From positions 416,001-480,000 of the forward strand of contig CANJVR010000001.1 of assembly GCA_947478395.1 (NCBI GenBank): DNA of 64,000 bases, given 5' to 3'. Numbering within the stretch: position 1 is the stretch's first letter; each line of letters starts with the position of its first letter. This DNA comes from Opitutia bacterium (lineage in GTDB: Bacteria > Verrucomicrobiota > Verrucomicrobiia > Opitutales > Opitutaceae). A program made the position numbers and the translations under genes. The notes beneath the pieces were generated by a model, which saw nothing but the letters and a program-made list of their open reading frames with translations, ran no database searches and had not been told where the DNA came from. This document shows, piece by piece, positions 12,609 to 39,942 of this stretch.

Positions 12609-13838
12609 TCACTCGTACCGCAACGCCTCGATCGGATCGAGCGACGCGGCCTTCCAGGCGGGATAAAGCCCGAAAATAATTCCGATCCCGCCGCAAACGG
12701 CCATGCCGATGCCGGCCCACATCCAAGGGAACGTAATCTCGGTGTGCATCACCACGGCGACCGCATTGCCGCCACCGACGCCGACGGCGACTCCGGCAAA
12801 GCCCCCGATTAAAGAAAGCGCGACAGCCTCGGCTAGAAATTGCAGGAGAACGCTCCGCTTCTTCGCGCCGATGCTTTTGCGAATCCCGATCTCCTTGGTG
12901 CGCTCAGTCACGCTCACCAGCATGATGTTCATCACGCCCACGCCCGACGCGAGCAACGCGATTGAGCTGATGATCAGCGAGCCAACTGCAACGACGTCCG
13001 CGATCTTGTTGAAGGCCTCGATCAGCGACTCGTTCGAGAAAATCTCAAAGTCGTTCAAATCCTCGGGGTGCAGGCCGCGGATCAGGCGCATCGCGCCGAT
13101 CGCTTTTTCTTGGGCCGCAGGCAGCGCTTCCTGACTTAGCGCCTGTACGTTAATGCTGATCGAGCGAAACTGCCGGCCGTAAATTGTCAGCCAGCGCGTG
13201 ATCGGGACCATCAAGAAATTGTCCGAACTGCCGCCGAACGACGTGCCCTTCGCGGCCAATACGCCAATCACCGTGTAGTTCTGCCCGTCGATGCGCACCA
13301 TTTGACCCAGCGGGTCCTCGCCGGCGAAAATCTTGTCCACAATGTCGTTTCCCAGCAGGCAAACCGGACGGGCATATTCGACATCGTCGGGGCTGAGATT
13401 GCGTCCGGCCGCGACCTCAAAATTAAACGCCGTGATGAAATTCTCATCGGTGCCGCGCAGGACGACATTGGGATTGGTCCGGCGATCCTTGTACACCACG
13501 ACCTTGCCCCAGCGACTCAGTTGCAGATTCACCCGGGCGTCTTCGCCCAGGATGTCCTTGAAGCGCGAACCGACCGCGTAGGTCAGATCGCGCCGGTTGC
13601 GATAGCGGGACGAATCCGCCGGCGAAAAACTGAACGCCGGCGTTTTGCTGACCTGAAAGCTATTTGCCCCGAGAACATTCAGCCCGGTTTCGACCGAGGC
13701 CCTCATGCCGTTGATGAAGGTCATCACCCCGATCACGGAAAACACCCCAACTCCGATCCCGAGGATCGTAAGGAACGAACGGAGTTTATTCGCCATGAGC
13801 GAGGCGAAGGCCAGGCGGAAGATTTCGGCGAGGAGCAT
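12609..13838 (-). CDS. MacB/FtsX-type ABC transporter permease
   Basis: NKLRSFLTILGIGVG, GVGVMNIMLVSVTERTKEIGIRKSIGA, C-terminal LDPIEALRYE. Confidence 0.92.
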   Translation of the reverse strand: MLLAEIFRLAFASLMANKLRSFLTILGIGVGVFSVIGVMTFINGMRASVETGLNVLGANSFQVSKTPAFSFSPADSSRYRNRRDLTYAVGSRFKDILGEDARVNLQLSRWGKVVVYKDRRTNPNVVLRGTDENFITAFNFEVAAGRNLSPDDVEYARPVCLLGNDIVDKIFAGEDPLGQMVRIDGQNYTVIGVLAAKGTSFGGSSDNFLMVPITRWLTIYGRQFRSISINVQALSQEALPAAQEKAIGAMRLIRGLHPEDLNDFEIFSNESLIEAFNKIADVVAVGSLIISSIALLASGVGVMNIMLVSVTERTKEIGIRKSIGAKKRSVLLQFLAEAVALSLIGGFAGVAVGVGGGNAVAVVMHTEITFPWMWAGIGMAVCGGIGIIFGLYPAWKAASLDPIEALRYE

Positions 13839-13843
13839 GGGGT

Positions 13844-15094
13844 TTATTCGTAACGCAGCGCGACGACCGGATCCAACTTGCTCGCTGACCAAGCCGGCGC
13901 GAACCCACTGAAGATTCCGGTAAACACGGAAACCACCAACCCCATCAAAACGAGACCGAGCGAAAATACCAAGGGGAACGCGGGCATCAGCACGCCGACA
14001 ACCGCCGCCATCGTCCAAGCCGTCGCGAGGCCGCCGATGCCACCGAGCAGGCAAATGGACACAGCCTCGATCAGGAACTGCAACAGGATCGTCCGCCGGC
14101 GAGCCCCCAAGGCCTTGCGCGTGCCGATCTCTTTCGTGCGCTCCTTCACGCTCACGTACGTAATGTTCATAATGCCGATCGCGCCAACGAACAGAGCGAG
14201 GCTCGTGATCACGAGCCCGGCCGTGGCGATGCCTTTTTTAATCGGATCCAATTGTTCGCGGATGATCTGCTGGCTGTTGATATCGAAATTATCCTTTTTT
14301 TCCGGGCTCAGCCGGCGAGCCCGGCGCATGATGCCCCGGAGCTCATCCTCCGCTTCCTGCTGCCGTGAGGTATCCATCTGCACCCGAATTTCGGGATTAG
14401 CGAAACGGATGGGGTAAAGGCGCGCGAACGAGTCGAGCGGCAAAAATACTTGGGAGTCCCAGCTGAAAAGTCCCAGGAAACTGCCCTGCCGTGCGGCGAC
14501 GCCCACCACGTTGAACTGCTGGTTGCGAATGCGCACCGTTTGTCCGATCGGAGATTCGTTCGGAAAAAGCGCGTCGGCCACGTCGAAACCGATCACGATC
14601 ACGTTACTCGCGTTCCGGGACTCGATTTCCGAGAAGAAGCGCCCCTCCTTCATGTCGGACTTCACAATGCGTCCAAGATCGGCACTCGTCCCGTAACTAG
14701 TGATATTGTTTACGCGATAGGCGCCTCGGATAATCGTCATGTTCGTCCCGGCGGCCGGCACCGCCAGCTTCAGGGGACCGCCGGGATGCGCGGCGATCCA
14801 ATCGTTGATCATCTGCGCTTGGTTCGGATTGATCTCAGGCCGGTTCCTCAGATTCCACCAATCCGAAACGTCGCGCCACGGCTGCCGCGAGACGTAAAGC
14901 ACGTCATCGCCAAACCCCGAAAGACTCGACTCCACCCCCGAATCGATGCCGAGAATCGCCGTGCCCATCAATGTGACCGCGACGATACCGATGATCACGC
15001 CCAGCGCGGTCAGCATCGAACGCAGCTTGTTTGCGTAAATCTGGGAGAACGCCATCCGCAGTGACTCGGAAATCTCGTAGAAGGTGCGAGTCAT
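13844..15094 (-). CDS. MacB/FtsX-type ABC transporter permease
   Basis: NKLRSMLTALGVIIG, IGIMNITYVSVKERTKEIGTRKALGA, LDPVVALRYE. Confidence 0.92.
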   Translation of the reverse strand: MTRTFYEISESLRMAFSQIYANKLRSMLTALGVIIGIVAVTLMGTAILGIDSGVESSLSGFGDDVLYVSRQPWRDVSDWWNLRNRPEINPNQAQMINDWIAAHPGGPLKLAVPAAGTNMTIIRGAYRVNNITSYGTSADLGRIVKSDMKEGRFFSEIESRNASNVIVIGFDVADALFPNESPIGQTVRIRNQQFNVVGVAARQGSFLGLFSWDSQVFLPLDSFARLYPIRFANPEIRVQMDTSRQQEAEDELRGIMRRARRLSPEKKDNFDINSQQIIREQLDPIKKGIATAGLVITSLALFVGAIGIMNITYVSVKERTKEIGTRKALGARRRTILLQFLIEAVSICLLGGIGGLATAWTMAAVVGVLMPAFPLVFSLGLVLMGLVVSVFTGIFSGFAPAWSASKLDPVVALRYE

Positions 15095-15486
15095 CCGATT
15101 TTCAATTTTGAATTCTCGAGTTTCGATTTCTGCAGACCCGCCTGTAGCGTGCGGCGCGATGCGACCATGATCGCGGTCCGCTCATCAGCCTCGCGCAGGA
15201 ACGGTGTGACTTTTCCCCCAGGCATCAGTCCATGTTCAGCGACTAGTTCCAGCCCAAACCCGGATTCGTCCGCCTCTTCCTCGACCACGGCGAACTTCGA
15301 AATCATTTCCGCCGACGAACGTGAACGACCGGCCGCGCGGTAGTTTGAGCCCACCGCTGTTCCCGAACGGCCGAGTTGATTGGTCAGCACCCGCCCGGAA
15401 GAGGTTTCCGGCCGTGAATCGATCAAGGTCAAAACTCGCAGCGCGGAGGCCTTGGTGCGCGGCTTCATCTGGTGCTCAGTGGTCAC
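15091..15486 (-). CDS. Four-helix-bundle protein (23S rRNA IVS protein / Avd-like family), possibly decaying
   Basis: RTK.SALRV, NQLGRSGTAVGSNYRAAGRSRS, VEEEADES..LEL match the family pattern (QLLRSGTSVGANYRAA.RARS...EEEADE..WLEL). Several normally hydrophobic positions are substituted. Confidence 0.8.
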   Translation of the reverse strand: MTTEHQMKPRTKASALRVLTLIDSRPETSSGRVLTNQLGRSGTAVGSNYRAAGRSRSSAEMISKFAVVEEEADESGFGLELVAEHGLMPGGKVTPFLREADERTAIMVASRRTLQAGLQKSKLENSKLKIG

Positions 15487-15498
15487 AAAAATCGAAAA

Positions 15499-16233
15499 TC
15501 ACTCCACCGGATTGTCGCTCTCGATCAGGCCGTCGCGGAGACGGACGATGCGGCGGGCGTGGCGGGCGATGTCTTCCTCGTGGGTGACCACGATGATGGT
15601 GTTGCCCTGCTCGTAGAGCTGCTCGAACAACTCCATGATTTCCTCGCCGGTCTTGGAGTCCAAATTGCCGGTCGGTTCATCCGCGAGAATGATCGACGGA
15701 CTGTTGACCAAGGCGCGCGCGATCGCGACGCGCTGGCGCTGACCGCCGGAAAGTTCGTTGGGGCGGTGAAACATGCGGTCGCCCAAGCCCACGTTCTCCA
15801 GCGCGTGGCGAGCTTTCTCCAGGCGCTCGGCGCGGCCCAGCCCGGCGTAGATCAGAGGCAGCTCGACGTTGTGGAGCGCATTCGAGCGCGGCAGCAGGTT
15901 GAAAGTCTGGAAAACGAAACCGATCTCGCGATTGCGAATCTCCGCCAGTTCGTCGTCGACCATCGTCGCGACGTTTTTTTGGCTGAACTCGTAGCGGCCC
16001 GCCGTCGGCGTATCGAGACAGCCGAGCATGTTCATCAGCGTGGATTTCCCGCTGCCCGACGGGCCCATGATCGCGAGATATTCGTTGCGGTGAATCTTAA
16101 CGCTCACCCCGCGAAGCGCGTGGATGATTTCCGCACCCATCTTGTAGAGTTTCGTCACGCCCTCGATTTCGATCACGAGGGGCCCGGACGGACGCAGCGT
16201 GCGTGCACGCGGCGCAGGGGAAGAGGCGTTCAT
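15499..16233 (-). CDS. ABC transporter ATP-binding protein (MacB/LolD-like)
   Basis: [48 protein letters not shown]. Confidence 0.95.
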
Positions 16234-16297: not shown

Positions 16298-17668
16298 TCA
16301 TGGCTTGATGGGCTTCGGCTTCTCGAGCGTGACCTTCATGTCGTCTTTCAACGTGCGAGTGATGACCCCGAAACTGCCGCTCACCACATCGTCGCCTGCT
16401 TTTAGACCCGATTTCACCTCGATGTGCGTCGTGTCCTGCAAGCCGGTCTCAACTTTCACCATTTTCACGACATCCCCTGACCGCACGAAAACGACCCGCT
16501 GCAGATTATCGCGGTCCGATTTCTCGGCCTGTTTTTGTTGAGCGACGTTGACGGCGGTCACCGCTCCATCGCCTTTGGTCTGGGCCGCGTTCTTGTCCCG
16601 ATCGGCCGCGACTTGCTCGACGGTCTTGTTGCCCTCGCGGGCGCGGACGGTCACGCTTTGAATCGGCACGGCGACGACGTCCTGCACCGATTTCGTCTCA
16701 ACATCCGCGTTAGCACTCATGCCGGGACGGAGCGGCGCGTCTTTGTCGAGGATCCGGATTTTGACCAGAAAATTGGTGACTTCGTCCTGCGTGTTCTGGC
16801 CGGTCACTTTTGCCGCAGAACCGATTTCTTTCACTACGGCGTCAAACTTCCGGTTCGGAAACGCATCGATGGTCACCTTTGCCTTGTCGCCGACCTTCAC
16901 GTTAACGATGTCGTTTTCGTTGATGTTCACTCGCACCTCCATGTTGGAAAGGTCCGCTACGCGCATGACCTCGGCGCCGCCGTAATTGCCCGTTCCGGCC
17001 ACGCGCTCGCCCACCTCGTTGCTGAGCGAACTCACCTTTCCGTTGATGGGCGAATAGATGACGGTCTTGGTCAGCTGGTCGCGCGCCTGGCTAAGGGAGC
17101 CTTCCGTGCGACGAATTTGGGCCTGGGCACTGTCGAGATTACCCTTGGCCACTTCGAGGGCGGTGCGCGCGGCGGCGATATCGGCGTCGGAGATCAGCTG
17201 CTTGGCAAAAAGGTCTTCGTTGCGCTTGAGGTCGTCCTGCGACTTGAGCAGTTGAGCCTTCGACTGGAGCGCGCTGGCCTTGGCTGAAACCAGCCCGGCC
17301 TCCTGCTGCTCAACCTGTGCCTGGTAGGCATCGGGTTTGATGCTGAGCAATAGGTCGCCTTTTTTGACGACAGCGCCTTCGCGGAATCCAAGTTGAATGA
17401 TCTCACCCGTCACCTCGGGCTGAATCTTTACTTCAACCTCAGGCTGAATTTTTCCAGTGGCGGAAACGATTTGAGTGATCGTTTTGATGACCGCTTTCTC
17501 GGCGGTGATCACGACGGCCGGAGTGGCGTTTTTCTTCTTAAAATAGGCGGCCGTACCGAGCCCGACGAGCAGGACGATGCCGCCCAGCACGAACCATTTT
17601 TTCGTGGATTTTTTGCGGGGAGCCGAAGCCGGGGACGCACTTTTGGATGCAGCAGGATCAAGGTTCAT
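16298..17668 (-). CDS. Efflux periplasmic adaptor subunit (MacA-like)
   Basis: N-terminal TM segment, lipoyl/coiled-coil hairpin, 'VKKGDLL', 'IYSPING', 'LRPGMSA', 'GLKAGD.VV'. Confidence 0.9.
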
Positions 17669-21455: not shown

Positions 21456-21459
21456 ACGG

Positions 21460-21605
21460 CAGATATTCGATTTCAGAGGCCTGATGCCAGCCTGGGAACC
21501 TCCTGTTCCCTCCGCGGTAAATTCCATCGTCAACCTGTTCTTCCCTAACTTCCGAATTCTGACATCTGTCCTCTGGCCTCTGGCTTCTAATCTTTTGCCC
21601 TGATC
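21460..21605. repeat. Heptamer-unit imperfect inverted-repeat element
   Basis: CAGAGGCCTGATGCCAG pairs with CTGACATCTGTCCTCTG; the 3' arm reads TTCTGAC ATCTGTC CTCTGGC CTCTGGC TTCTAAT. Confidence 0.6.

Positions 21606-36045: not shown

Positions 36046-39942
<3,897 letters not shown>

Follow-up and report, generated by a model that had tools for sequence, protein, structure and literature searches.

A four-helix-bundle gene between inverted heptamer arrays in a macAB-type operon: an ageing copy of a probable junction cassette

A 64,000-nucleotide stretch from an Opitutia bacterium (contig CANJVR010000001.1, positions 416,001 to 480,000; hereafter the window) carries, between the ABC ATPase and permease genes of a macAB-type operon, a short open reading frame (ORF) for a four-helix-bundle protein flanked by runs of heptamers. 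Our preferred interpretation – to which we assign a probability of roughly 0.55 – is that this insert is an ageing copy of a DNA-level junction cassette: an S23p/Avd-like four-helix-bundle gene that lies between inverted arrays of four to five heptamers and occupies the stop–start junctions of operons. The cassette design itself is real. The cassette is a member of the TIGR02436 family, is built like an intervening sequence (IVS) of ribosomal RNA (rRNA), and behaves most like the RAYT/REPIN system.

An earlier interpretation made from the letters of the window alone (the sequence-only reading) raised the question whether complementary heptamer arms bracket other genes of the family. They do: all four family genes of the source genome (G000; other G numbers denote related genomes and L numbers individual loci) have inverted heptamer arms, with a different heptamer for each gene. 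In the host bacterial family, which holds some 594 matches to the gene family and retains at least one gene in 131 of 151 genomes, the arms of 114 of 134 cassettes beat all 30 shuffles; across phyla (79 loci, one dropped for short flanks) 72 of 78 beat all 10 shuffles. The flanks are thus more complementary than shuffled sequence; all 72 significant cross-phylum stems have period 7, and their median arm length is 32 nt. Arm position is equally regular. At the operon's two inner junctions 29 cassettes were scored. Their 5' arm begins a median of 2 nt past the upstream stop, and no more than 10 nt from it in 24; their 3' arm finishes a median of 3 nt short of the AUG, again with at most 10 nt between the two in 24. 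The stop of the ORF overlaps the downstream AUG as ATGA in 16 of 31 cassettes. The proposal that the stem brings upstream stop and downstream start back together therefore holds for the relatives; the window copy's own stem is degenerate.

Comparison of orthologous operons indicates that the cassette is a discrete insert with a patchy distribution. The comparison covered 112 macAB-type operons (8 of 120 ATPase hits, with 68–71% identity and likely to be paralogues, were left out, and G025, which has a frameshifted, broken gene at J2, was excluded from counts and trees), and junctions were labelled J0 (MacA/ATPase), J1 (ATPase/permease 1), J2 (permease 1/permease 2) and J3 (after permease 2). 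A full gene is present at J0 in 1 of 108, at J1 in 17 of 112, at J2 in 14 of 106 and at J3 in 3 of 106 operons, and once inverted further downstream; arms only are found at J0 in 7, J1 in 20, J2 in 7 and J3 in 18. Both J1 and J2 are empty in 63 of 106. Many alleles are empty, the gap then measuring −4 to about 25 nt, which fits a discrete insert of IVS type; the contrary outcome, in which relatives would all carry the gene here without complementary flanks, is not what the 17 of 112 full genes at J1 show.

Patchiness notwithstanding, these comparisons show each gene clade to be tied to one host locus. In 150 genomes of the host family, the orthologous ATPase is no more than 6 kb away from 33 of 51 non-self close matches to the window gene. 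The other three clades of the source genome occupy their own junctions – which we take to be liv, hisF and aspartokinase/thrC – in 24 of 24, 13 of 25 and 19 of the 29 loci covered; at a single locus the cassette is inverted at its usual place, and for the L003 protein the count omits 13 of 42 non-self matches. Cross-phylum hits lie in the same operon for the 10 best and for 14 of 79 overall. A separate observation concerns L289, where the same gene clade occurs in the same operon of a genome named Chthoniobacterales: the tie to the locus may cross class boundaries.

If the cassette is mobile, as the sequence-only reading had suggested, then the history of the gene should depart from that of its host operon, and tree conflict, junction changes and block replacement between sister genomes all speak for movement. 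The gene tree is in conflict with the operon tree. The closest gene (77% identity) is found in G006, whose permease is only 55% identical to that of the window, and the approximately unbiased (AU) test rejects a clade of sister genes for G001 with G064 (p=0.00014) and for G055 with G132 (p=0.0015). The host proteins of G001 and G064 are 97.8% identical; their cassettes belong to different subclades and have different heptamers. The differing block extends beyond the cassette, by some 60 nt into the ATPase and some 30 nt into the permease coding sequence, within flanks that are otherwise 90–100% identical: inclusion of host coding sequence points to recombinational allele exchange in DNA. Comparison thus shows that cassettes move between genomes by allele replacement, with breakpoints in host coding sequence in this one clear case, and different clades and heptamer types substitute for one another at a single site. 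Seven filled/empty or filled/filled alignments, between pairs highly diverged at the junction, gave no consistent target-site duplication.

Movement also takes place within the operon. The 17 J1 carriers imply 15 or more changes on the host tree; the protein tree (110 columns) mixes the junction labels, which requires nine or more changes; and AU tests reject a single clade both for J1 genes and for J2 genes (p<1e-50). Arms without a gene are found at J1 in 8 of 13 operons with a full J2 gene vs. 10 of 73 (independent pairs: median p=0.03, range 0.016–0.29). This pattern – a full gene at J2 and arms only at J1 – is the trace expected if a cassette is copied into the adjacent junction and the original then decays. 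The comparisons therefore indicate that this clade has re-inserted at neighboring junctions of the same operon, often beside an arms-only remnant. At L241 and L120 (G046 and G103) cassettes are inverted at or just past the usual junction, an arrangement that suggests recombination between the arms.

The alleles at these junctions form a series. After full cassettes come alleles with an internal deletion but with both arms and the opening codons retained (G060, G073, G029, G131), then arms only, a solo arm (G003) and empty sites; the number of tandem heptamer units varies between alleles. Cassettes thus decay via internal deletion, which leaves hairpins without a gene, single arms or empty sites.

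Comparison likewise shows that hairpins with this heptamer type but no gene are scattered over the genomes carrying this clade. The source genome contains further gene-less heptamer hairpins (23 period-7 runs at the strictest threshold vs. 0–3 for other periods), and the dispersed copies have an idiosyncratic variant unit in common. Among the 151 genomes, five or more matches to this clade's arm motif are present in 15 of 24 carriers vs. 18 of 127 non-carriers (odds ratio 10, kinship uncorrected), and a second clade with its own motif gives 16 of 25 carriers vs. 12 of 126 others (odds ratio 17, kinship uncorrected); comparisons of each clade with the other clade's motif in these genomes were not significant. 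With kinship controlled by independent pairs, the association for this clade has p=0.012. A crude gene calling placed 14 of 17 hairpins between co-oriented calls; the background gene set was unreliable and the count is not used.

One gene-less hairpin lies in the window itself, at 21457–21590 on the plus strand. Its heptamers are of the type found in the L003 cassette, and it stands between genes that are presumably pyrF-like and ispD-like. At this junction relatives often have a 3' arm directly before the AUG, of varied heptamer or octamer types. A second period-7 run, a short one at 36909–36936 that resembles the L001 arm type, lies by eye inside a long coding region and is without a partner arm.

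A passive passenger – an old insertion repeatedly lost and neutrally recombined, with arms that arise through slippage and template switching and are unused by the protein – would explain part of these data. Simple deletion fits most close pairs, symmetric mismatches between arms fit homogenization at the DNA level, and the number of tandem units does vary. Such a passenger is nonetheless very unlikely: period 7 in 72 of 72 significant cross-phylum stems, the joint change of both arms, the variant unit common to dispersed copies, movement of the gene among four junctions and the several copies that keep all conserved residues are each difficult to reconcile with it.

The window copy itself, set in one minus-strand operon that runs MacA-like gene, ABC ATPase, 131-residue ORF, permease 1 and permease 2, is an aged representative. 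The features are as follows.

15095..15500, minus strand: whole cassette (5' arm, four-helix-bundle gene and 3' arm) at the ATPase/permease 1 junction; empty, remnant and full alleles occur among the 112 orthologous operons
15481..15500, minus strand: 5' heptamer arm, truncated, two units remaining; its start lies within the ATPase stop codon
15091..15486, minus strand: four-helix-bundle ORF (TIGR02436), 131 residues from GTG or 125 from the ATG at 15468
15095..15129, minus strand: 3' arm of five heptamer units, an in-frame protein tail that spans the permease initiation region
15499..16233, minus strand: host ABC ATPase (MacB/LolD-like), the upstream neighbor; profile scores lie below equivalog cut-offs
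13844..15094, minus strand: host MacB-like permease 1, the downstream neighbor
12609..13838, minus strand: host permease 2; its 5' junction is 5 nt in the window
16298..17668, minus strand: host MacA-like membrane fusion protein

The letters and positions given in the sequence-only reading are correct. GATTTTCGATTTT, at 15500–15488, begins with the G of the ATPase UGA; AAAATTGAAAATC, at 15109–15097, stops 2 nt ahead of the permease AUG (15094); the two can form a 13-bp duplex with one G-U pair (−10.5 kcal/mol); and the five heptamers at 15129–15095 code for the tail of the protein, ...QKSKLENSKLKIG. The stop of the ORF shares bases with the permease AUG (ATGA). The stem, in contrast, is neither stronger than chance nor likely to be formed: its z-score is −1.1, 25 of 200 shuffles are equally strong, and its pairs have a probability of about 0 in the folding ensemble. 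A stronger inner register, 15500–15481 with 15138–15117 (−22 kcal/mol), has a probability of about 1 in one folding window and of 0.14 in a slightly wider one. By local alignment the window arms score 23.5 (shuffle mean 20.6, shuffle maximum 28), a value that the flanks of 27% of 399 control ORFs reach or exceed.

Comparison with relatives suggests why. In intact relatives the arms are about 30 bp long and span the interval from stop codon to AUG, and the 13-bp register is the outermost one, the register that these relatives use; the 5' arm of the window is shorter by 18 nt than those of G006 and G094, the closest relatives at the same junction. The window protein has 9 changes at sites that are at least 80% conserved in the clade, where the median of 23 clade members is 1, G006 has 0 and several members retain all conserved residues. 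The window cassette is therefore a decaying copy with a degenerate stem, and because of this decay its 13-bp stem does not exceed chance. Judged by the stem that defines a 23S intervening sequence, the arms are significant in relatives and at chance level here. An assembly artefact is not the cause of the insert, since it is spanned by DNA contigs of the same species obtained in two other freshwater studies.

The sequence-only reading had further supposed that the insert may be excised from the operon mRNA. On this account, which we consider unlikely, RNase III would cut the stem of about 30 bp as in 23S rRNA and free the RNA of the gene, leaving two mRNA halves or a re-joined mRNA; the element would survive only where fragmentation is harmless (rRNA helices and gene junctions). 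The precedent is close: passages of PMC4990558 describe a 23S IVS of Coxiella that encodes a member of this protein family, is closed by a 28-bp stem with heptamer repeats in the 5' arm, and is cut by RNase III in vitro. Intact arms, with their median of 32 nt, abut stop and start, and an RNase III gene is present in the genome; given this gene and arms as long as the Coxiella stem, cleavage of intact copies is possible.

A stem selected in mRNA, however, predicts more G-U pairs than A-C mismatches on the sense strand, and such an excess is absent. The 104 host-family stems hold 88 G-U pairs vs. 123 A-C mismatches (ungapped; p=0.02, the kin not being independent) or 193 vs. 296 when gapped, and the 72 cross-phylum stems are even, with 62 vs. 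53. As the lean in the host family is the opposite of that predicted and the cross-phylum set is balanced, we claim no strand either way. The one RNA run among 24 listed and 3 of the 23 DNA runs were examined as contigs over the cassette. In this single shallow metatranscriptome (12% of sampled words present) no joint skipping the cassette was found among the contigs, a weak absence; the sole cassette contig, 15154–15410 (257 nt, depth 2.1), lies within the gene, that is, the loop, and is too thin to count. A joint in a DNA run that skips 15082–15514 (depth 3.8, 32-nt side, likeness 85) probably belongs to the empty allele of another organism and was not used. Excision from mRNA is therefore unsupported, and further points count against it: the window copy persists with a chance-level stem while bridged in the DNA contigs of two studies, a cut in the 3' arm would take away the downstream initiation region, and replacement and hops in DNA are left unexplained. 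The movement that is seen – block replacement, internal deletion and inversion – is movement of DNA.

A further alternative is a host-useful regulator, in which the hairpin would mask downstream initiation until the upstream ribosome opens the stem, the pentameric protein would act as an RNA binder that regulates hairpins of the same type, and the element would spread through ordinary recombination and selection. The stop-to-AUG geometry of 24 of 29 cassettes, the solo 3' arms kept directly before AUGs at pyrF/ispD, the presence of a family gene in as many as 131 of 151 genomes, and the proposal, made in the consulted portion of PMC4679880, that heptamer arrays ahead of start codons are regulator sites in Beggiatoaceae are all in its favor. 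Yet most genomes are without the element at any single junction (neither J1 nor J2 is occupied in 63 of 106 operons), one clade or heptamer type gives way to another at the same site, many copies decay, and a signature of pairing on the RNA strand is absent. Regulation is a quite unlikely explanation.

We return to the junction cassette and to what its protein might do. The window protein scores 48.5 bits against TIGR02436 (cut-off 24) in a profile search and 25.6 against Pfam PF05635 (cut-off 33.8), falling below the latter as a decayed copy. A model of the intact G006 protein (predicted local distance difference test, pLDDT, 96.7) matches 2RLD (E 1e-5, template modelling (TM) score 0.82) and 2GSC (TM about 0.8), and a protein atlas search returned PF05635 clusters only. 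The kinship with IVS proteins proposed from the sequence alone is therefore borne out by fold, while that with Avd (4DWL, 8UB7; TM 0.60–0.73, E 0.09–0.1) is a weak match. No nuclease family or fold was found among profile, fold and atlas matches. By likeness to 2GSC and 2RLD the protein is predicted to be a pentamer.

Such a pentamer might bind the heptamer arrays of its own cassette, in the form of RNA or of single-stranded DNA, and, with no known catalytic domain, might help host enzymes copy arm-bounded units, as RAYTs do with REPINs. The insert would be tolerated if a host promoter transcribes it and if the frequent ATGA overlap preserves translational coupling; ribosomes that stop on the 5' arm or read through the 3' arm would open the stem, and splicing would be needless.

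Several points weigh against the cassette as a mobile unit of this kind. Profile and fold matches gave neither a catalytic fold nor a partner enzyme, and the candidate motors are remote: the one reverse transcriptase match and the one Y1 transposase match of the source genome lie far from the cassette. Co-conversion of flanks is clear in one pair only; other close pairs that differ in state have no drop in flank identity, so that loss by deletion explains many of the empty alleles. The gene tree is built on an alignment of only 110 columns. For the second clade the association of gene and hairpins fails once kinship is controlled (p=0.34). In such counts generally, a few of the matches are the cassette's own arms, and causation may run in reverse, with abundant hairpins recruiting genes. 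Finally, the notion that a hairpin without a gene always marks the place of a former full cassette failed at pyrF/ispD, where none of 89 relatives' loci (29 top hits plus 60 chosen among the remaining 93) has a full cassette: gene-less units must turn over independently.

Some observations stand apart from this argument. The reverse transcriptase-like match, the sole one, is at C4 155219–156386 of the source genome, on another contig, among what we take to be methyltransferase-like and ATPase/nuclease-like genes in a presumed defence island; the Y1 (PF01797) transposase gene, at C1 346400–347900, has a tandem duplication of its 5' end and a short inverted terminal repeat of its own. At the L178, L172, L180 and L160 junctions there are palindromes, within decayed cassettes or alone, that we assume to be like repetitive extragenic palindromic (REP) sequences; these junctions thus host several kinds of small element. 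At ATPase/permease 1 of seven loci (L079, L080, L089, L090, L104, L113, L140) about 60 unrelated hydrophobic codons form a permease N-terminal extension or a small membrane ORF. All four GxxExxY (TIGR04256) loci of the source genome (L035–L040; C1:199157, C2:589568, C7:27370, C1:171105) appear by eye to lie between inverted arrays that repeat about every 9–10 nt at operon junctions; one comes after an ABC ATPase-like gene, in two the profile match is split, and arms of a similar kind without a gene occur at junctions of the present operon in G045, G148 and G066.

If the junction cassette is what we propose, a large gene family of unknown function (the roughly 594 matches counted above) gains a testable role, and an origin could be offered for two old puzzles, the rRNA intervening sequences that contain an ORF and the heptamer repeats found between genes. 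The operon supplies a natural series for such work: genes paired with their cognate heptamers, sister genomes whose cassettes have been exchanged, and alleles that range from full through remnant to empty. Being in decay, the window copy is a poor experimental subject; intact cassettes are present in G006, G001, G029 and G072. A bolder version, which we regard as a long shot, is a class of mobile element without an enzyme of its own: an Avd-like pentamer that reads four to five heptamer units and enlists a polymerase or reverse transcriptase of the host, with which it copies hairpins bounded by arms off the operon transcript and into stop–start junctions close by. A single mechanism would then lie behind the ORF-bearing intervening sequences of rRNA, the hopping within an operon and the heptamer repeats of many phyla.

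Known systems share parts of this design. Homing elements, such as free-standing homing endonuclease genes and inteins, likewise have patchy alleles tied to a site, a series from full through degenerate to empty, and co-conversion of flanks (seen here in one cassette pair), but the cassette encodes no nuclease and moves to non-homologous neighboring junctions. Heptamers dispersed through genomes are familiar from the cyanobacterial short tandemly repeated repetitive (STRR) sequences. Others are TAACTGA (PMC4679880) and GGGAATC (PMC4692102), which according to the parts of these papers at hand form period-7 arrays just before starts or after stops, between aligned ORFs and often as inverted pairs. 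The same parts offer no origin, whereas cassette arrays trace to gene-carrying cassettes; a search of the main texts for terms gave no 'helix bundle' in PMC4679880 and no 'helix' in PMC4692102. With the diversity-generating retroelements the likeness is one of fold, that of Avd, whose homology to PF05635 is noted in a passage of PMC10053308; the difference is that no reverse transcriptase lies beside the cassette gene. Adenine-specific mutation of retroelement type was considered and its pattern was not seen (no formal search for template/variable repeat pairs was made, and the ATPase control, noisy at gene ends, was not used). Removal of inverted-repeat transposons from animal mRNAs is reported in PMC12779559 (in extract). 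Full-text searches of the literature, supplements and most subscription journals apart, gave no description of such cassettes outside rRNA.

In construction the nearest relative is the 23S rRNA IVS. Three short rRNA motifs, used to look for such an IVS in the source genome, had no match in the assembly. ORF-bearing examples include that in helix 45 of Coxiella burnetii and those of Leptospira, Brucella and Xanthomonas cited in PMC4990558, the available sections of which describe the same protein family in a stem-closed insert with variable arm heptamers and a decay-prone ORF. Those inserts, however, sit in an rRNA helix, and for Coxiella a cut by RNase III in vitro is described, whereas the cassette lies between ABC ATPase and permease in an mRNA operon, and its clades hop between junctions and leave gene-less derivatives. 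In behavior the nearest relative is the RAYT/REPIN system, which also combines a locus-resident gene with dispersed, intergenic, gene-less hairpins. In that system gene carriers have more hairpins; with kinship controlled, the same holds for carriers of this clade (p=0.012) but not for those of the second (p=0.34). The proteins differ – RAYT is a Y1/HUH transposase, the cassette protein an all-helical Avd-like bundle, and the single PF01797 match of the source genome lies elsewhere – as do the arms, which in the cassette are tandem heptamer arrays. The genes differ in inheritance too: RAYTs are described, in the portion of PMC8049555 consulted, as vertically inherited and not self-copying, while the cassette gene is horizontally replaced and changes its junction.

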